A DNA stretch of 20,000 bases. Origin: an uncultured virus (IMG/VR IMGVR_UViG_3300026116_000007). Its lineage: Duplodnaviria > Heunggongvirae > Uroviricota > Caudoviricetes. Below the pieces are notes generated by a model. It saw only the letters and a program-made list of their open reading frames with translations, searched no databases and was not told where the DNA came from. The translations under genes were made by a program, and so were the position numbers. The first letter of the stretch is position 1; each line of letters starts with the position of its first letter. Where the stretch lies: the IMG/VR virus record IMGVR_UViG_3300026116_000007. One strand, 5' to 3'. Shown here in pieces: positions 4,620 through 14,688 of the stretch.

Positions 4620-4692
4620 GGGGATGTAGCTCAATGGATAGAGCACCAGCCTTCTAAGCTGATTGTTCTGGGTTCGAGTCCCAGCATCCTCA
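4620..4692 (+). tRNA. trnR: tRNA-Arg(UCU)
   Basis: Acceptor GGGGATG/CATCCTC, D arm GCTC/GAGC, anticodon loop CT-TCT-AA, T arm CTGGG-TTCGAGT-CCCAG, discriminator A. CCA is not encoded. Confidence 0.95.
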
Positions 4693-4694
4693 CT

Positions 4695-6174: not shown

Positions 6175-6381
6175 ATGGTAAGTATAGAAGTAAGAATAAC
6201 CCCACAATGTGGCCACGAGCAGTTTACTTATGACTGCCTATGGTGTGCGGAGTCAAAGGTAGTTCAAAGAACTATTGTTCAATTCATTGAAGATAAGAAG
6301 GGACCATTCAAGTCACACTCACAAATAGAAATGAAAATCACTGACTATTCAGGATACGAGGGTAATGATGAGACCATCTAA
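6175..6381 (+). CDS. Hypothetical protein with a CxH...CxxC motif
   Basis: ATG at 6175 after AAAGGAGA. The ORF-track start at 6103 lies inside the tRNA-like RNA. Confidence 0.7.
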   Translation: MVSIEVRITPQCGHEQFTYDCLWCAESKVVQRTIVQFIEDKKGPFKSHSQIEMKITDYSGYEGNDETI

Positions 6382-6817
6382 ATATGAAACCTATATGGAA
6401 ATTGCAAAGATGTGGGCCAAACAATCTACATGTTCAGCACGTGTAGCGGTTGGAGCAGTCATCGTCAATAAGTTTGGCCAAGTGATTGCGAGTGGGTACA
6501 ATGGGTCACCCCGAGGTCATCCCCACTGTGATGAAGTTGGTTGTGACCTTGATGCTCTAGGTCACTGCAAGAGAGCTATTCACGCTGAATTGAATGCTAT
6601 ATTACAGTGTGCGAGAGTGGGTGTCTCATGTGACGACTGCTTTATCTATATAACTCATTCACCTTGTCCTCGATGCTCATTGATGATTGCCCAATCAGGG
6701 ATTATAAGAGTCGTCTATGATAATCAATATGGGGATTTGACTGACTCATCCGATATTCTTGCAGTCTCACGTATCCCAATGGTCCCATTTGTAAAGGAGG
6801 TAGGATGGACTTCATAG
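6365..6817 (+). CDS. dCMP deaminase (ComEB/T4 cd family)
   Basis: STC...VGAVIV, SGYNG, HC...GC, HAELNAI and PCPRC zinc motifs. Confidence 0.92.
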   Translation: MMRPSKYETYMEIAKMWAKQSTCSARVAVGAVIVNKFGQVIASGYNGSPRGHPHCDEVGCDLDALGHCKRAIHAELNAILQCARVGVSCDDCFIYITHSPCPRCSLMIAQSGIIRVVYDNQYGDLTDSSDILAVSRIPMVPFVKEVGWTS

Positions 6818-7948: not shown

Positions 7949-8176
7949 ATGAATACACCTAATCTAAAGAAAGTCAAGTTGTCAAGTCTCAATGCGAGAA
8001 CACGCGATATTGCCGAATGTTTTGCTCTTGCTTGGGGGACCAAGGTTATAACAAATGAGCAGGAGGTTTACGTTTCAGAAAAGGAAACGAACCTACGCAA
8101 AATTACGGTCATTTACACTGATGACGGTTATCGCATTGATGAAAATACGTCTATGCCCTTCCGCCTTACTCACTAG
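7949..8176 (+). CDS. Hypothetical protein
   Basis: RBS GGAG; 75 aa. Confidence 0.7.
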   Translation: MNTPNLKKVKLSSLNARTRDIAECFALAWGTKVITNEQEVYVSEKETNLRKITVIYTDDGYRIDENTSMPFRLTH

Positions 8177-8190
8177 AAGGAACTAGGTAA

Positions 8191-8373
8191 TCTTTTCAGT
8201 CGTGGTTCGAGAGTAATTGAAAAGAGGGGGATGACAGGGACAAGCCAGTCCATGCGTCTACTACTTGCTGTTCAACCTACGCTAAGAGTCTTGAGGTACG
8301 AAAGGCCCAGTTAATCAAGATGCAATTAGTAGGAGTAGCCAGAACCGACCCTGATGGGACGCTGTGAGATTGG
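8191..8373 (+). ncRNA. Pseudoknot RNA motif, copy 1
   Basis: Leading hairpin 8191-8225; GACAGGGACAAG at 8233; CAGGG/CCCTG (8349-8353) crosses CCAGTC-CAT-GCGTC/GACGC-T-GTG-A-GATTGG; long inserted hairpin 8261-8338. Confidence 0.7.
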
Positions 8374-8389
8374 ACAAGACATTTACCAT

Positions 8390-8591
8390 CTGAGTTTCAC
8401 TTGTAGAAAGAAACTCAGTAGACAGGGACAAGTAGTCCATGTGTTGAACGTTTAGCAGTGTGCTGAGTCTAGCGATATTTGCAGGTGTTGAGAATGAGGA
8501 AACTCATTTGAGCCCAAATAGGAGGTAGTTCGAAGCATAACAAATTGCATTGCTAACAACAAACGACCCTGACGCAACGCTGTGGGACTAT
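8390..8591 (+). ncRNA. Pseudoknot RNA motif, copy 2
   Basis: Leading hairpin 8390-8418; GACAGGGACAAG at 8421; CAGGG/CCCTG crosses TAGTC-CAT-GTGTTG/CAACGC-T-GTG-G-GACTA; insert closed by TTAGCAGTG/CATTGCTAA and containing AATGAG-GAAA-CTCATT. Confidence 0.7.
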
Positions 8592-8607
8592 ACGTTTATC
8601 TTATATA

Positions 8608-8754
8608 TGCAGTTGACCTCTATGAAATCAGATGGAGGCTCTGCAAGAAAGGAGGTTCCTACCGCTCTTCATAAACTATAGGCACGGGCTTGACCCGAAA
8701 GTAGCCACTGATTGGTAATCAGTCCGACCTCGACGTGGGAGGTTGATGTTTATG
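8608..8754 (+). ncRNA. Hairpin plus four-way-junction structured element
   Basis: TGCAG/CTGCA with CCTCTAT/ATGGAGG; then CATAAAC/GTTTATG closing GGC..CGGG/CCCG..GCC, ACTGATT/AATCAGT and CGACCTC/GAGGTTG. Confidence 0.5.
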
Positions 8755-8981
8755 ATAAATGCTAAACTTTTTCCATAGAGTAAATGAGAATAATTATAGA
8801 ATGCACGTTGTAAGACAATGGGTTACCTCTATCCTATATAAGCGACAATTACAAGCTTATATAAAATGAGTGAAATGACAAGTGTCAGAATAAATATCGG
8901 ATGGCAAACACTGTGAAATCATTCGAGCTTGTCAATTTGAATTGAATGAAAATAAAAATACACCAAGGAGTAAAGATTAAG

Positions 8982-9839
8982 ATGGCTAAAACAATTAGTA
9001 AGACTAAGACAAAGTCAATTATCCGCAAAGGTCCAGCCTCTGGCAAAAAGTCAAATGACTTCATCGTAGTGAAAGAGGATGAGCCCGCAACGATTGTTCC
9101 CATTCTGCCCACAGGTGAAATCAATTCGATTGACCTTCACGCCTTTTGGGCCATCAACCCAGCGGTGACCTTCGCTTGCATCAAGGGTAGCGACGATGCG
9201 GGCGATGGCTGCCCTGGCTGCCTGCTGGGAGACAAAGCCGGTTATCGTGCATTCCTGCCGGTCCTCGATGCTGAGGGCGAGCTCAAAGTGTTCCCTTTTG
9301 GAATTTCTGTTGAGCGTCAGTTGGTTACCCTCGAGGATGAACTTGGGACAATCGTTGGAACAAAGCTTCGTGTTAAACGCACTGGGAATGGTTTGGCAAC
9401 CAAGTACCAGGTTATCAACCTCGGCAAAGAGGTCAAGATTGACGTTGATGAAGATGATGCAGCCAAGTTTGTAGAGGCTCACATCGAAATCAAAGACCGC
9501 GACAAAATCGTTGACGAGCTCACCGCAGCTGGCCTTATGGGTAAGAAAAAGAAGAGCAAGCTGGCTGAGGAAGAGGACGAAGACGAGGATAATGACGAGG
9601 AGGAAGAGGACGATGATGACGAGGAAGTAACCCCCGTCAAGAGCAAGAAAGCAAAGGTGGTTGAGGAAGAGGATGATGACGAGGATGATGACGAGGATGA
9701 TGACGAGGATGAGGAAGACGAAACTCCCGTCAAAAAGTCCGTCAAGAAGGTTCCAGCTAAGAAAGTACCAGTCAAGAAAGCTGCTCCAGTAGCTAAAAAG
9801 CCGGTTAAGAAGAGTAAAAAGAGCGATGATTGGGAATAG
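8982..9839 (+). CDS. gp32-like single-stranded DNA-binding protein with a long acidic/basic low-complexity tail
   Basis: H...C...CPGC putative zinc site and RTGNGLATKYQV motif typical of phage SSBs; first gene of the replication operon; ends in DDWE. Start placed at 8982 after AAGGAG (alternative 8946). Confidence 0.75.
   Translation: MAKTISKTKTKSIIRKGPASGKKSNDFIVVKEDEPATIVPILPTGEINSIDLHAFWAINPAVTFACIKGSDDAGDGCPGCLLGDKAGYRAFLPVLDAEGELKVFPFGISVERQLVTLEDELGTIVGTKLRVKRTGNGLATKYQVINLGKEVKIDVDEDDAAKFVEAHIEIKDRDKIVDELTAAGLMGKKKKSKLAEEEDEDEDNDEEEEDDDDEEVTPVKSKKAKVVEEEDDDEDDDEDDDEDEEDETPVKKSVKKVPAKKVPVKKAAPVAKKPVKKSKKSDDWE
9669..9710 (+). repeat. 12-nt tandem repeat (GAGGATGATGAC x3.5) encoding EDDD
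   Basis: Read directly from the sequence within the SSB tail. Confidence 0.85.
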
Positions 9840-10296
9840 TCTCGACGACCTTCTCAAACTTCAAACTGGTCTTATGCGTATTTTGGGAGTTGACCCTCTG
9901 TCGGGAGCAATCTCGGCAGGGGGTAAACCCTCTATGACTGAGCTTGGAGCAGCTATCAGCATAACGTGTGAGTCAGCCGAAATTCTTGAAGCAATGGAGA
10001 AGGCTGGACGAAAATGGAAAGAAAAAGAGGGTAGTATTGAGGCTGAGGTGAAAGAGGAGCTAATAGATGTAGTATTCTTTGTCTTAGAGTTAGCCATCCT
10101 TCTGAACCTCACTGGTGAACAACTGGCTAACCTCTACGTTGAGAAGTACAAAAAGAATTTGCTTCGCTACTTAGAGGCCACAGCTAATAGTGGTGGAGTA
10201 AGCAGTCTGCTTGTCTCAGCAATGGATGAACAATTCGGATATGCTGAGACAGAGAAGATTATCAAAGAAGCACTTGGAATAAAGGAGGTCAAATGA
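9826..10296 (+). CDS. All-alpha NTP pyrophosphohydrolase (dimeric dUTPase/dCTPase, MazG-like fold)
   Basis: ESAE...RKWK...EELIDVVFF...YVEKYKKN matches the ExxE / KxWK / EExxD pattern of dimeric dUTPases and T4 gp56-like enzymes. Confidence 0.75.
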   Translation: MIGNSLDDLLKLQTGLMRILGVDPLSGAISAGGKPSMTELGAAISITCESAEILEAMEKAGRKWKEKEGSIEAEVKEELIDVVFFVLELAILLNLTGEQLANLYVEKYKKNLLRYLEATANSGGVSSLLVSAMDEQFGYAETEKIIKEALGIKEVK

Positions 10297-10916
10297 GTGG
10301 ACTCGCCCCCTACCTTCTTGGTTGTTCAGCCTGCACACAGTGCGAAGGGGCAGCCTACCAGCTGCCTCCATTCCTTTATGCAGGGTCAAGTACTCCAACT
10401 GTTTTGGTTATGGCCCAAAATCCAGGTGAAATAAAAGAGGATTGGCGCTTGGATTTATCAAAGCTTATCGATGAGAAGACCACAGGTGAAACACTCAAGA
10501 CTATCTATGATATAGATTTCATCACCTCTCATGGTCACAAACAGATGACTAAAATCTTTGGAGATACTTGGCTCACAAACGGTAAGTTCATGTATACGAA
10601 TGCAGTTCGGTGTAGGACTAAAGATAATGCTCCTCCATCAAATGAGATGATTGAGAACTGTTTAGCGTGGACTTACCAATTACCAATCCCACAAATTGTT
10701 ATTCTCATGGGAAAGATTGCAGTGAAACAATTCTGCACAATGGTAGGAAAAAGTGAACTCCCTCTTTGGAGGACTGTGAAGCTCACAAGGTCAAAGTCTA
10801 AAGTGACTTATGTTACAACTATGCCGCATTATTCAGCTATGAGGTCACACTCAGATTTTGATGATGCTAAACGTCTCTTTGAGAAAACCCTTGAGGATGC
10901 CGAGGTGGTGTTATGA
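10293..10916 (+). CDS. Uracil-DNA glycosylase superfamily protein, family-4-like (Fe-S)
   Basis: CSACTQC, motif A variant MAQNPG, TNAVRCR, PSNEMIENC, LMGKIA, motif B variant MPHYS. Confidence 0.8.
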   Translation: MSGLAPYLLGCSACTQCEGAAYQLPPFLYAGSSTPTVLVMAQNPGEIKEDWRLDLSKLIDEKTTGETLKTIYDIDFITSHGHKQMTKIFGDTWLTNGKFMYTNAVRCRTKDNAPPSNEMIENCLAWTYQLPIPQIVILMGKIAVKQFCTMVGKSELPLWRTVKLTRSKSKVTYVTTMPHYSAMRSHSDFDDAKRLFEKTLEDAEVVL

Positions 10917-12196
10917 AAGCAAAGAACATCATCCTTGGCGGAGGTTTCGCTGGCCTACAATTAGCCTCGCTGTTGAATGACTCTATTATCATTGAAGCAT
11001 CCCCTTCAGTAGGTGGACTTTTGAAGTCCTTCAAATCAGATAGTGGACAATTCACGTTCGACATTGGCGGCCACGTCTATACAACGAAGGATGAGCTTCT
11101 CAGCGACATCATGCATGACTCAAATCCGAATTACTTCGCTGAGCGAAAAGCATACTATGATTATCAAAGACAAATCCCATATCCAATTCAGTACCATGCT
11201 GATGAGCTTGGAATAAAGCTAATGCACACTCCCAGCGAAAGACCTCCAAGCTTAGCCTCACTACTCATCCACGAATTTGGTCAAGAGTTCTATGAAAAAG
11301 TTTTAGGGCCGTTCAATAGGAGAGTATGGTCAACGAGTCCTAGTCAGATGGACACTGATTGGATTGATGGACGCATCGCAAAGATTAGTGAATTTGGGAA
11401 TAATTGGGGAACAAATTCATCCTTCTATTATGCTTGTGGCGAAGATATCCTTGAAACAATGAAAGCAAGACTTCGACTCACTGGAACTCGTATCTTTACC
11501 GACTCATCAGTCATCGACATAAAGCCTAATGATAAAGAGCTCTATGTCGATTGTGTTTTCCCAGCAGTCTATAAAGGGACAATCACGTATGAGCATCTAT
11601 TCGACACAACTGGGATGCTTCTCAACATGAATGACCAAATCCTTCCACACAATGATGTCCTCACAATTGGAATTGGTCTAAACCGAAAACTCGACGTTGA
11701 CTTCCACTGGTGGTACAATTCAGTTGAGAACACATCCCCAATTCATCGCATTACCCTACTCAGTAGGTATAGCGAAAAACTTGCACCTGATGGAGTGGAC
11801 TCTCTCCTCATCGAAATCCCATACAAGAACTATAACAATAGGGACATCTATGAAAGTGAAAATGATAATGAGTACTTCTCAAGAATTGGGGTACTAAGCC
11901 TGCTTCGTAGAGCAAATTTCAACTTCATAGATGATAGTAGCATAGAAGAGATAGTCAAAATCAGGTCAAAAGGGTATCCAATTCCTGTTATAACACATCG
12001 CACCAAAGTTGCAATTGCAAGGAAAAATTATGCAGAGAATTGTGCCTATTTAGTTGGTAGATGGGGAGCCCATGGGTACTACAACCTCGACCACATCATT
12101 CATGACGCAATTTCAGCAGTGAGTGCTTCACATAATGAAAAAGTTGAGGACTACTATTGGGCAAATCATTACTACAAAGAGAAAAGGAGATTTTAG
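10913..12196 (+). CDS. FAD-dependent UDP-galactopyranose-mutase-like flavoenzyme
   Basis: GGGFAG dinucleotide fold, FDIGGHVY, IPYPIQ, PFNRRVW, WIDGRIA, NWGTNSSFYY, GYPIP and GRWG..YNLDH follow, in order, the motifs I recall from fungal/trypanosomatid-type UGM (DVGGHVIF, PYPFQ, PYNFKVW, WxxERVA, WGPNxxF, GYPxP, GRFG..NQDH). Confidence 0.75.
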   Translation: MKAKNIILGGGFAGLQLASLLNDSIIIEASPSVGGLLKSFKSDSGQFTFDIGGHVYTTKDELLSDIMHDSNPNYFAERKAYYDYQRQIPYPIQYHADELGIKLMHTPSERPPSLASLLIHEFGQEFYEKVLGPFNRRVWSTSPSQMDTDWIDGRIAKISEFGNNWGTNSSFYYACGEDILETMKARLRLTGTRIFTDSSVIDIKPNDKELYVDCVFPAVYKGTITYEHLFDTTGMLLNMNDQILPHNDVLTIGIGLNRKLDVDFHWWYNSVENTSPIHRITLLSRYSEKLAPDGVDSLLIEIPYKNYNNRDIYESENDNEYFSRIGVLSLLRRANFNFIDDSSIEEIVKIRSKGYPIPVITHRTKVAIARKNYAENCAYLVGRWGAHGYYNLDHIIHDAISAVSASHNEKVEDYYWANHYYKEKRRF

Positions 12197-12197
12197 T

Positions 12198-12809
12198 ATG
12201 CTGTACATTTTTGAAGGGCCACGTAATAGCGGCAAAACAACTACTATCAACACGACACTTGCTTTGCTGAAAGAAAGCGGGAGGACGGCCTACACGATAA
12301 AATTCCAAAGGACCGCAAGACCTGCTCCTCCCGTCTTCATGATTGACTTTCTCACCAGGAACTACCTCGCTCTCATTGATAGCAGGTCAATCTGTTTGCT
12401 TGATAGGTTCCACCTCACTGAATTTGTGATGAGGACTCTTGATAAAAAGGTAGATACTCACGTGCTCGTAACAACTACTCATATGATTGATGAAACGCTT
12501 CGGAACATGGGGGCAGTAACTTTCATTCTCGAAGCAACCGCTGAGACTCGTCAGGCTCGTCTGAAACTGAGAGACGTTGACCACAACAAAAAGGAGTGGT
12601 TATCATATGATGAGCTTGACACCACTTGGACGTATGCAAGAAAGATTTTCAACGAGAGCGAAACTCGTATTCGCAAAATTGAAAATCGTGATGATGGCCT
12701 CAAGTTGGCTAGGGAGATTGTCAAGCATGTTGATGGAGGGAAACTTCTCAACGAGAAAATCCCTTTTCTCCCTCCAATCATAATCAGCAATGAGGTAGTT
12801 TTAGCATGA
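12198..12809 (+). CDS. dNMP (thymidylate-like) kinase
   Basis: MLYIFEGPRNSGKTT P-loop, LDRFHLTE, lid region RLKLR. ATG at 12198 after AAAAGGAGA is preferred over 12123. Confidence 0.82.
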   Translation: MLYIFEGPRNSGKTTTINTTLALLKESGRTAYTIKFQRTARPAPPVFMIDFLTRNYLALIDSRSICLLDRFHLTEFVMRTLDKKVDTHVLVTTTHMIDETLRNMGAVTFILEATAETRQARLKLRDVDHNKKEWLSYDELDTTWTYARKIFNESETRIRKIENRDDGLKLAREIVKHVDGGKLLNEKIPFLPPIIISNEVVLA

Positions 12810-13777
12810 GAACAATCCTCTACTCTACATGGGAGCCAGGACTTACCGGTAATACAAAAAGTTCTGGTGGTGGAGCTGCATGGACAAAGTATCTCTGGGG
12901 TTTCCTTGAAACAAATGGGTATAGCATTGTTGCTCCAGGGATAACTAATCCAGACTCAGTCGAACCAACCCAACCTGTTGATGCAGCCATTTTCTGTTGG
13001 AGATGGTTGTTACCAGATGCTCCTCAATATAAGGAGCGGAACCTTTTGTATGATAGACAAAATTATCTGATTGGCTGGTGCTTTGAAAATGCAATACCAG
13101 TCGTCATACATGACCAGGACTTGAAGATGCTTTCCGTTGAGCGTGAGTGGCTGAAGAAAAATGGAGCCATCATCGCTACTCCATCTTTATTTCCTGAGAC
13201 TGGAGAAATCTCTTTACACTTTCCAAATCCATACGAGTTTGAACCACTCATTCAGGGCTCAACTGGTCTAACCTACATTGGGAACAATTATGAAAGACTT
13301 GACCAAACATTCAAGTTGATTGAGCCCTTTGCACATGAAGTCCACACAACCTTCTATGGAAATTGGATTGAGCCAGGTTATGATAGGGACCCAAGTGTGA
13401 TAAAAGGGTTACTACCAAATGTTCATTTTATGGGTAGACTTCCACAGGAGGATGTTATCACCACATTGAGAAAAGCAAAAGCGACGGTGATGCTCCATAA
13501 GCCTGAATATGGACCGCGTGGATTTGTTACCATTAGATGGGCTGAGGCAGCATCTGCAGGTGTCCTCCCGTTTATCCCAGCTGAGTTCAATCTACCAAAT
13601 CAATATATCTATTCATTGAGCAGGCTGCGTGTCTCTGAGAGTGCCGAGATGCTAGAGGCCTATAATCAGATAGGAGAAAACGAACGCAAAAAACTGATAT
13701 ATCAATTACGGCGATTTGTCGTTCACTATATGTCCCCAGTTCCTTGGATAAAACTTTTAGAAAGGATAATCGTATGA
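12806..13777 (+). CDS. GT-B glycosyltransferase resembling T4 DNA beta-glucosyltransferase
   Basis: The C-domain YIGN..FYGN..FMGRLP..KPEY..FVTIRWAE..IPAEF..V.ESAEM parallels T4 BGT as I recall it (YGGS..FFGN..FTGKIP..KNY..FITLRVWE..IDEEF..VNNRAEL). HDQD lies at the expected catalytic-Asp region. Confidence 0.75.
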   Translation: MRTILYSTWEPGLTGNTKSSGGGAAWTKYLWGFLETNGYSIVAPGITNPDSVEPTQPVDAAIFCWRWLLPDAPQYKERNLLYDRQNYLIGWCFENAIPVVIHDQDLKMLSVEREWLKKNGAIIATPSLFPETGEISLHFPNPYEFEPLIQGSTGLTYIGNNYERLDQTFKLIEPFAHEVHTTFYGNWIEPGYDRDPSVIKGLLPNVHFMGRLPQEDVITTLRKAKATVMLHKPEYGPRGFVTIRWAEAASAGVLPFIPAEFNLPNQYIYSLSRLRVSESAEMLEAYNQIGENERKKLIYQLRRFVVHYMSPVPWIKLLERIIV

Positions 13778-14688
13778 CAAACTTTTCACCTAAAGACCTG
13801 TCCTATTTTATTCAGGACATCGAAGAGTGGGGAGCGAAGGTTGACTCAGAGAGAGGTGCCACACGAGAAGTTGAGAATGAAGTTCTCTCTATGAATAATC
13901 CTCTTGACCGCGTATGTACTGAAGAGTGGCGAAAAATGAACATTGGCTTTGCCATCACTGATGCAATTCAGCACATTGTAGGAGATGACTCACTTGCTCC
14001 CCTCACTCAGTTCGTTCCTGGCTTTTCAAAATATTCTACTAATGGTAGGACAATTGATGGAGCTTATGGCAAACGTTTTCATGCTAACGAGCAGCTCGAT
14101 AAAATCATCATGATGCTAAGGAAAGACCCAATGACAAGACGAGCTGTTCTTTCAGTCTATATGGGTCCAGTTGACCTCTGGGGTGGTGGTGGTCTGAATA
14201 CTCCATGCACCCTCAATTTTCATTTTCTTGTTCGTGATGAAAAGCTGAACATGAAGGTGATGATGAGGTCTAATGACGTAATCCTTGGTCTCACAAATGA
14301 CGTATTCACATTCACCATGCTTCATGAGTATATTTCATCTCATGTAGAAATACCAATTGGTGATTACACTCACTTTGCTTCTTCACTTCATCTCTACGAG
14401 AGTGACCTCAGTAAGTATAAACCCATTCATGGAGGTCATTGGAATAAGGTCATGCATGCGATGCCTTTCAAATGGGACCCAAAACCTCTCTATGATGCTC
14501 TCATTCATCTCAATGTTACCTTATTTGAAGATGCATGTTCCAAAACATTTTCAACACACTATGACCAAGACCTTTACTTTGCATCAGCAGTTGTCTTCTA
14601 CAGAAAACAAGACGGAGTCCGTGAGATGTGGCAATCAATTGGTGATGAGACTCTCAAACGAGTAGCTGGCTTCTGGATAGGAGAATGA
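13774..14688 (+). CDS. Thymidylate-synthase-fold dCMP-modifying enzyme (dCMP hydroxymethylase-like)
   Basis: GAYGKR, TRRA, catalytic PC (TPCT), MRSNDVILGLTND and SLHLY. Asp occupies the position of E. coli TS Asn177, as in T4 gp42. ATGA overlap at 13774. Confidence 0.85.
   Translation: MTNFSPKDLSYFIQDIEEWGAKVDSERGATREVENEVLSMNNPLDRVCTEEWRKMNIGFAITDAIQHIVGDDSLAPLTQFVPGFSKYSTNGRTIDGAYGKRFHANEQLDKIIMMLRKDPMTRRAVLSVYMGPVDLWGGGGLNTPCTLNFHFLVRDEKLNMKVMMRSNDVILGLTNDVFTFTMLHEYISSHVEIPIGDYTHFASSLHLYESDLSKYKPIHGGHWNKVMHAMPFKWDPKPLYDALIHLNVTLFEDACSKTFSTHYDQDLYFASAVVFYRKQDGVREMWQSIGDETLKRVAGFWIGE

Follow-up and report, generated by a model that had tools for sequence, protein, structure and literature searches.

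A stretch of 20,000 nt from an uncultured Caudoviricetes virus (IMG/VR IMGVR_UViG_3300026116_000007; full virus record 57.6 kb, 87% complete), referred to as the window, carries on its + strand two diverged copies of a single RNA motif, at 8233-8373 (w1, copy 1) and 8421-8590 (w2, copy 2). The motif is a real, conserved and previously uncharacterised RNA of tailed phages from soil and sediment metagenomes, with 11 clear copies at eight loci in seven lineages, and these very probably represent a structured RNA family. In order, the copies have UGACAGGGACAAG and stem A, then NAU, which leads to stem B and to a variable arm of 57-118 nt, and after the arm CGACCCUGAYG, stem B', UGUGR and stem A'. 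The RNA family and its fold are new, a rating that covers family and fold and not mechanism. With a probability of about 0.4, the motif is a self-contained leader or intercistronic RNA that would act in cis, either in the processing of its own transcript or in the protection of the transcript's 5' end.

Copies of the motif in the window and in other phages

Two tandem, diverged copies had been described in an earlier note made from the letters of the window alone, and exact repeats and shuffles confirm both the copies and the places given for their blocks. The word GACAGGGACAAG occurs exactly at 8233-8244 and 8421-8432 and nowhere else in the window; about 0.12 chance matches are expected per window at ≤1 mismatch, and two matches were obtained in 2 of 200 shuffles. 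A 21-nt block, CGACCCTGAYGNNACGCTGTG, is present at 8346-8366 and 8564-8584 and was matched in none of 200 shuffles.

In copy 1, the 5' conserved block UGACAGGGACAAG (8232-8244; an exact repeat, nearly invariant in the 11 copies) includes CAGGG, the proposed 5' strand of a pseudoknot (8235-8239). It is followed by the 5' strand of stem A, CCAGTC (8245-8250), the junction CAT (8251-8253), the 5' strand of stem B, GCGTC (8254-8258), and the variable arm (8259-8345), for which a constrained fold predicts a long irregular stem. The 3' conserved block (8346-8373) consists of CGACCCTGATG, G, stem B' (GACGC, 8358-8362), a TGTG-A junction and stem A' (GATTGG, 8368-8373), with CCCTG, the proposed 3' strand of the pseudoknot, at 8349-8353. 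Copy 2 has the same layout: the 5' block AGACAGGGACAAG (8420-8432) with CAGGG at 8423-8427, TAGTC of stem A (8433-8437), CAT (8438-8440), GTGTTG of stem B (8441-8446), an arm predicted to form a long branched stem (8447-8563), and a 3' block (8564-8590) of CGACCCTGACG, stem B' (CAACGC, 8575-8580), a TGTG-G junction and stem A' (GACTA, 8586-8590), with CCCTG at 8567-8571. All these features are on the + strand. The inserts between the core halves, put at about 85 and 115 nt in the earlier note, measure 87 nt in copy 1 and 118 nt in copy 2.

Upstream hairpins on the + strand precede both window copies, an imperfect one at 8191-8225 (fold of the upstream 66 nt) and a perfect 9-bp one, CTGAGTTTC/GAAACTCAG, at 8390-8418 (inverted repeat, minimum-energy fold). 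The earlier note had counted such a hairpin as part of the motif. It is present in the window as described but is not constant in the family, where it is an optional, non-conserved accessory: a stop codon immediately precedes copies L010a and L084, and L104b adjoins the copy before it.

The family was searched for by pattern scans built from the conserved blocks (eight of viral contigs, one of metagenome contigs and one of genome contigs) and by a covariance model, R1, built from three copies. Nine of the 11 copies lie outside the window, in six other metagenomic phage lineages, so the pair is not merely a local duplication. Single copies were found in IMG/VR 3300010397_000006 (L003), 3300035688_000028 (L008), 3300032156_000002 (L013) and 3300037468_000183 (L036) and in metagenome contigs (L077 and L084), and a tandem pair, L010a and L010b, in 3300025030_001172. 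The eleventh copy, L104b, is in 3300009285_015080, with a decayed twelfth, L104a, directly upstream. All ten copies known when R1 was applied scored E ≤ 2.6e-6, and L104b later scored E = 3.9e-5; sequences that matched the pattern alone had E ≥ 0.016. Whole-contig scans gave one or two copies per phage, and tandem pairs are present at three of the eight loci (window, L010 and L104). The six whole carrier contigs span 42-62% G+C, and no protein family is common to more than three of them (BLASTP, E < 1e-6).

Outside these lineages the motif was not found. A two-part pattern, which covers near-consensus copies in one arm-length range, gave ten matches in prokaryotes (one genome per species), none of them a member (best R1 E 0.044). 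Among 50,697 GenBank phage records, blastn with the 801-nt gap sequence gave no match, and blastn with a 133-nt copy at E up to 10 returned just chance matches of parts of the arm within coding genes. No version with an arm below about 57 nt turned up in a scan of viral contigs. The family is thus real, rare, phage-specific within the reach of these searches, and its arm is obligatory.

The earlier note's view of the motif as unrecognised holds against Rfam 15 (4227 models), where no sense-strand match was obtained at any threshold tried. At the gathering score the window contains only a tRNA-Arg (4620-4692) and nine related loci contain no match; at E up to 10 nothing falls on the sense-strand motif in the window, nor on the motif copy in eight other loci. 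The sole overlap is an antisense mir-221 match across copy 2, at chance level (E 5.6; 13.6 bits, where the gathering score is 46.6). In the literature, the conserved words match just unrelated primers, and searches for surveys of structured RNAs in phages showed no description of the motif among the entries listed. One such survey (Fremin, Bhatt and Kyrpides, 2023; PMC10690425) draws on IMG/VR, source data of the same kind as those of the present family, and gives 10,006 structured-RNA candidates without names, many of which lie upstream of genes. Six contig identifiers and a 12-mer are absent from the readable tables of that survey; its alignment archives lay outside the comparison, so overlap with an unnamed candidate is possible.

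Many pattern matches were rejected as members. L006, L007 and L009 have no 5' block. In one viral-contig scan 37 of 42 loci were chance matches lacking the 3' block, mostly from one coding family in many similar contigs; R1 scored L021, L028 and L040 among them, and the rest were judged by the missing block. Three further scans contained 15 of 19, 3 of 4 and 13 of 18 chance loci, of which R1 scored L058, L061, L072, L076, L085 and L093, the others being judged by eye. Chance matches to the 5' pattern (L012:1501-1525, - strand, and about 30 similar loci) fall in a coding region of many similar 20-48 kb viral contigs. About 200 nt downstream of several of these stands a single CRISPR-repeat-like word (TTTCAATCCACGCACACCTTGCGGAG...), and others are without it. 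A partial look-alike of the 5' block, GGGGACAGGGAAAAAG at L003:1413-1428, lies about 90 nt upstream of the true copy and has no covariance-model score.

Helices, arm and proposed pseudoknot

The 5' half of the family consensus is (U)GA-CAGGG-ACAAG, stem A (5-6 bp), N-AU, stem B (5-6 bp) and the arm; the 3' half is (C)GA-CCCUG-AYG-N, stem B', UGUG-R and stem A', often followed by CAAG. Whole units measure 110-171 nt, and a purine-rich stretch of GG(N)AA type stands ahead of the CCCUG strand. About 30 junction nucleotides are invariant across the copies.

Both stems differ between the window copies and stay paired, as the earlier note had seen: stem A is CCAGUC/GAUUGG in copy 1 and UAGUC/GACUA in copy 2, and stem B is GCGUC/GACGC and GUGUUG/CAACGC, respectively. 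Elsewhere in the family stem A takes the forms CCUGC/GCAGG, UCUGCU/AGCAGA and CUGAC/GUCGG, so that five different sequences of this stem are all fully compensated. In a model-guided alignment of ten copies, which leans towards helices A and B because it was fitted to them, standard pairs occupy 142 of 142 cells, and both sides have changed at 8 of 16 pairs (5 of 6 in stem A, 3 of 5 in stem B). The observed pairing values were reached by none of 500 shuffles, and sliding the partner by 1-3 columns lowers pairing to 29-51%. RNAalifold on a plain, structure-blind MAFFT alignment, which like the raw segments is without that bias, returns the same two helices, with compensatory changes at seven of ten pairs.

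The free variation of stem A bears on a likeness to P4 and P7 of group I introns, which the earlier note had offered as speculation. Group I introns interrupt genes and have a P4-P6 domain between P3 and P7. A remnant or rearranged group I core would account for the X, Y, X', Y' order of the pseudoknot strands, as in P3/P7, and for the GACUA/UAGUC-like words of copy 2, which resemble the R and S elements. Against it, the GACUA helix is replaced by others such as CCUGC/GCAGG, and just ACAAG (5 nt) separates the pseudoknot strand from stem A at the place of the P4-P6 domain. The copies also stand in tandem between complete open reading frames (ORFs) with their own stop codon and ribosome site, and Rfam, with its group I intron model, gave no match at E up to 10 in the window and eight other loci. 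The group I reading is contradicted, and a relic of this kind is scarcely credible.

The orientation of the motif is marked by its pairs and by its surroundings. Stems A and B contain four G-U or U-G cells, which would become A-C mismatches on the opposite strand, and all 11 copies are co-oriented with the flanking ORFs. Both observations point to an RNA read from the sense strand, the + strand in the window, in agreement with the earlier note. The GAAA tetraloop that the note had added to this argument is different: GAAA is part of a 10-nt loop in a variable arm, where it lacks conservation.

The same evidence weighs on the idea that the conserved site works as DNA, be it as a target of recombination or of a homing endonuclease, as folded single-stranded DNA, or as protein-binding repeats of an origin. 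Helices that covary and contain G-U pairs, together with uniform orientation, would be unexpected for double-stranded protein-binding sites, and the minimum of the cumulative GC skew is 15-17 kb away from the motif. A homing enzyme that targets a conserved sequence also leaves the original conservation of that sequence unexplained. Three observations fit a DNA site: a cassette of one motif copy (b-type) and a putative HNH gene lies exactly at the 3' end of the other copy (a-type) in L010 and L104 as compared with L084, the arm of copy 1 has been exchanged exactly at the core boundaries in a related strain, and the window gap adjoins genes of replication and nucleotide metabolism. Taken together, a DNA-level function is very unlikely.

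In each copy the arm is predicted to form a long irregular stem that rises from the top of stem B when stems A and B are enforced and the pseudoknot strands are kept single. The nine further copies in six other lineages back the earlier description of a fixed core with a free peripheral arm, and so does variation among strains. Contigs of four soil or rhizosphere runs were compared over 8100-9000. In run X10, one contig of a related strain is 90-95% alike, and there the copy 1 arm (8259-8344) is swapped for 89 unrelated letters, both core halves being kept. Copy 2 of this strain has two changes only, at 8419 and 8579, both outside the arm at 8447-8563, and G8579>A turns the stem B wobble U8442-G8579 into U-A. 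The X10 piece 8345-8989 has 36 other letters and 20 gaps in total, nearly all past 8600. In two runs T8355>C falls on the Y position of CUGAYG. This is the pattern expected for a constrained core and a free arm, as seen in single contigs at depths of about 3-6.

The strands CAGGG and CCCTG cross stems A and B in both window copies, as described in the earlier note, and the pseudoknot CAGGG/CCCUG probably forms, as judged from the letters of the family. The two strands are invariant in 8 of 8 aligned copies, and covariation is therefore silent on their pairing. The lengths of the G-run and the C-run are matched at 3 and 3 in seven copies and at 2 and 2 in L010b and L104b. This matching loss of one base on both sides is, besides invariance, the sole positive support for the pseudoknot.

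Two other functions of the letters were considered. A leader peptide was rejected, the frame that ends at the conserved UGA having no consistent start codon or length. The arms do not look like guides, since their complementarity to the phage's own genome amounts to a single 12-mer at most.

Position in the message and possible roles

Six of the 11 copies have a ribosome-binding site and a start codon 5-50 nt past stem A', and in a seventh, L003, the start codon is about 55 nt downstream. No terminator-like hairpin separates the motif from the start codon in these seven, and none lies next to stem A' in any of the 11; the sole candidates are one at +137 past copy 2 and one in L077, at +119 and within an ORF. 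The next motif copy follows w1 and L010a, and about 350 nt more of non-coding sequence follows w2 and L084. The first downstream genes are unrelated among the loci and mostly encode small proteins without a Pfam match. Recognisable neighbours are NT5C at L013, C5 DNA methylases about 0.5-1 kb downstream at L008 and L084, and a T5orf172 protein upstream at L003; at L010 and L104 the neighbours are taken for HNH endonucleases, for which Pfam gave no match. A 218-aa protein downstream at L003 was considered as a DNA methyltransferase, an assignment that Pfam did not support. Among the carrier contigs compared no protein partner or gene class is shared. From its position and its unrelated neighbours, the motif is therefore a leader or intercistronic mRNA element that is not tied to one pathway, rather than a separate small-RNA gene that has a terminator of its own.

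Cis action is suggested by the lack of an accompanying protein or gene class and by the end of the motif shortly before a ribosome-binding site without a terminator. The motif would be transcribed within a sense-strand polycistronic mRNA. Helices A and B would stack, separated by the invariant AU/UGUG internal loop, and close a junction with the long variable arm. The 5' tail CAGGG would pair back onto the junction strand CCCUG, so that some 30 invariant junction nucleotides would meet in one compact knot. Such a knot would act in cis on the transcript that carries it, either unaided or together with host machinery that is conserved universally, and most likely it would set or shield the 5' end of the cistron that follows. 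Self-cleavage would be one route to this end; a knot that halts 5'-end-dependent RNA decay would be the other.

Several observations weigh against this reading. The family is small, its 11 copies falling in seven lineages of which several are related, and the alignment that displays the helices has the lean described above. The pseudoknot has no substitution covariation, and in L036 and L077 three Gs face two Cs, which leaves a pseudoknot of just 4 bp with one G over. The 5-nt linker ACAAG would have to span helices A and B, which is plausible. Folding energy of copy 1 is no better than that of shuffles (z = +0.23) and its minimum-energy fold is without stems A and B; that of copy 2 is lower (z = -2.19) and its minimum-energy fold recovers both stems. 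Energy folding on its own could not have singled out the motif. The roughly 30 invariant junction nucleotides, finally, would fit a ligand pocket, or a docking site for a protein or for RNA polymerase, equally well.

A ligand pocket would make the motif a riboswitch-type aptamer, sometimes in tandem, through which a small molecule or ion tunes downstream phage genes. Junction and pseudoknot riboswitches (SAM-II/V, preQ1-II/III, c-di-GMP-II, THF-I) share with the motif the 5' leader position, conserved junction nucleotides around a pseudoknotted multi-helix junction, and an occasional tandem arrangement, known for some classes. Genes of DNA nucleotides and their modification do lie downstream: the hypermodification cluster of the window, NT5C at L013, and the methylases within about 1 kb at L008 and L084, although the last two loci are not independent because their arms are related. 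Against this stand the lack of an expression platform, with no terminator and no helix hiding the ribosome site that overlaps the 3' strand of the motif in any of the 11 copies, the absence of a consistent gene class, the first downstream gene being a different small protein without Pfam match at most loci, and the lack of any Rfam riboswitch match at E up to 10. A riboswitch is unlikely.

A docking site could serve an RNA that binds a conserved host factor, acting as a put-like antiterminator on RNA polymerase in cis, or titrating, as a decoy or sponge, an RNA-binding protein or defence nuclease of the host. The put RNAs are cis-acting antiterminators of lambdoid phages, about 70 nt long, made up of two plain stem-loops without a pseudoknot. 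Those of HK022 resemble the motif in being phage RNAs of operon leaders, about two per genome, that act in cis and need no phage protein. A host target would fit the absence of a co-occurring phage protein, the preservation of the core across hosts of very different G+C (as for a universal target), the tandem copies at three of eight loci, and the replacement of the arm between close strains, as in a possible arms race. ACAGGGA includes the A(N)GGA word of the CsrA binding motif; L104b, however, carries GACAGGCC and hence no GGA. One or two copies per genome also contrast with the many sites of known sponges. The motif has no sequence likeness to put RNAs and differs from them in its pseudoknotted architecture, and no terminator that would need read-through is present within 160 nt downstream, apart from the weak candidates after copy 2 and in the L077 ORF. 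This explanation is rather unlikely.

A role in cis processing or 5'-end protection could be realised by a new catalytic or mechanical phage RNA, either a self-cleaving ribozyme of new fold or the first knot in bacterial viruses that resembles exoribonuclease-resistant RNAs (xrRNAs), cutting or shielding the 5' ends of messages against host RNA decay. This more specific proposal is held to be doubtful. The xrRNAs of flaviviruses and of some plant viruses have a multi-helix junction in which a 5' tail base-pairs with the stretch that links the inner arms to the 3' strand of the closing helix. Invariant junction nucleotides go with covarying helices in these RNAs, whose action is in cis on the viral RNA and which are often found as a diverged tandem pair. 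The predicted strand order of the present motif (5' pseudoknot strand, 5' strands of A and B, arm, 3' pseudoknot strand, 3' strands of B and A) agrees with this topology, and the pseudoknot that a ring would need has invariance and a co-deletion as its support. The two differ in the closing helix, which has 11-14 bp with an internal loop here and about 5-6 bp in xrRNAs, in the carrier, which is the mRNA leader of a DNA phage here and a 3' untranslated region there, in the linker, which is 5 nt here, and in the lack of an Rfam match to the motif, xrRNA families included. The stop expected for an xrRNA-like block would be just 5' of UGACAGGG.

The small self-cleaving ribozymes of phage DNA (twister, twister-sister, pistol, hatchet, hammerhead and hepatitis delta virus (HDV)-like) share with the motif a compact pseudoknotted core, an invariant junction and free peripheral helices, as well as an intergenic position in phages near homing-endonuclease genes with more than one copy per locus. 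The strand order of the motif is not known from any of these folds, and its core is larger, with about 30 conserved positions and an arm that is always at least 57 nt long; Rfam gave no match here either. Hammerheads have CUGANGA and GAAA core strands around three helices. In the motif, the nucleotide after CUGAYG or CUGAYU is G, C or A and not a constant A; there is no GAAA strand beside stems A or B, and Rfam gave no hammerhead match. It also departs from the definitions of HDV-like and twister-type ribozymes where these can be checked.

Antitoxin RNAs of type III systems (ToxI-like) consist of tandem units of about 34-40 nt beside the gene of an endoribonuclease toxin. The motif was rejected as a member of this class, its units being 110-171 nt long, with at most two per locus and no toxin-like neighbour found.

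The interest of the family lies in some 30 junction nucleotides that are identical across phages almost without common genes and 20 points of G+C apart. Constraint of that level has earlier been a sign of ribozymes, of riboswitches or of RNAs that hold on to a universal machine of the cell. New self-cleaving classes arose from comparative finds of this type, and a class confirmed here would be the first of its kind; to our knowledge no nuclease-blocking knot has been described in phages. A small core with an exchangeable arm is suited to biochemistry and structure determination, and could possibly provide an RNA part for stabilising or insulating messages.

Gene neighbourhood and insertions at related loci

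The pair of copies lies inside an ORF-free gap at 8177-8945 of the window, bounded by a 75-aa ORF and a 297-aa ORF; the true start of the latter is probably the ATG at 8982. All long ORFs that flank the pair are on the + strand, and their products serve the nucleotide metabolism and replication of the phage. This + strand neighbourhood comprises a CobS/CobT-like AAA and VWA pair, a dCMP deaminase, a MazG/dUTPase-like protein, a protein like uracil-DNA glycosylase (UDG), a flavin oxidoreductase, a kinase, a glycosyltransferase, a thymidylate-synthase homologue, a DnaE-type polymerase and a radical SAM protein. The polymerase has ≤32% identity to any GenBank phage protein, and the phage therefore has no close cultured relative. 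The genes at 6365-6817 and 9826-14688 (dCMP deaminase, MazG/dUTPase-like, UDG-superfamily, flavin oxidoreductase, thymidylate-kinase-like, glycosyltransferase and a divergent thymidylate-synthase homologue) suggest hypermodified thymidine or cytidine in the phage DNA. A tRNA-Arg gene (anticodon UCU) lies among small ORFs at 4620-4693.

The remainder of the gap, 8600-8945, is far more variable among strains than copy 2. It has four predicted hairpins, a terminator-like site at 8725-8745 and an A+T-rich stretch with an inverted repeat, TATATAAGC/GCTTATATA, at 8835-8863. A promoter-like TTGTCA...TAAAAAT stands directly ahead of the gene downstream of the gap. CTATAGG at 8676 resembles the promoters of T7-type RNA polymerases; no longer word around it is repeated in the genome, and no phage-specific promoter word near the motif recurs there. 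The 297-aa ORF contains a fourfold 12-nt repeat (GATGATGACGAGGA...) at 9612-9710 that encodes an acidic, Asp/Glu-rich stretch.

A comparison of L010:880-1680 (-) and L104:520-1330 (-) with L084:2440-2700 (+) reveals about 535 nt of inserted sequence in L010 and L104, which starts exactly where the a-type copy ends. It consists of the b-type motif copy and a 130-aa Cys/His-rich ORF, the one taken for an HNH endonuclease. Its 3' part is identical in the two loci, and short direct repeats, CAAGCACCTTA and GGGCCTGA, lie at its bounds. The insertion looks like intron-less homing with the conserved motif as landing site, and the b-type core, which is shorter by one G-C pair, could represent an allele that resists cleavage. 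The cassette suggests that phages treat the motif as conserved enough for a homing target. The decayed a-type copy at L104:1147-1290 (-) has an extra hairpin within the 5' block, where GTCCCTGA replaces GACCCTGA. Its stem B' is broken by a deletion of 2 nt, and the next copy is joined to it without a gap.

On the 3' side of the motif at L084:2626-2985, about 360 nt of G+C-rich, ORF-poor sequence is conserved in L084, L010 and L104, has no Rfam match and is possibly another structured RNA. At L104:1316-1460 (-), upstream of the motif pair, a direct repeat of about 75 nt occurs twice in tandem; each unit ends in a G+C-rich hairpin, after which comes AAAAATCTTA.

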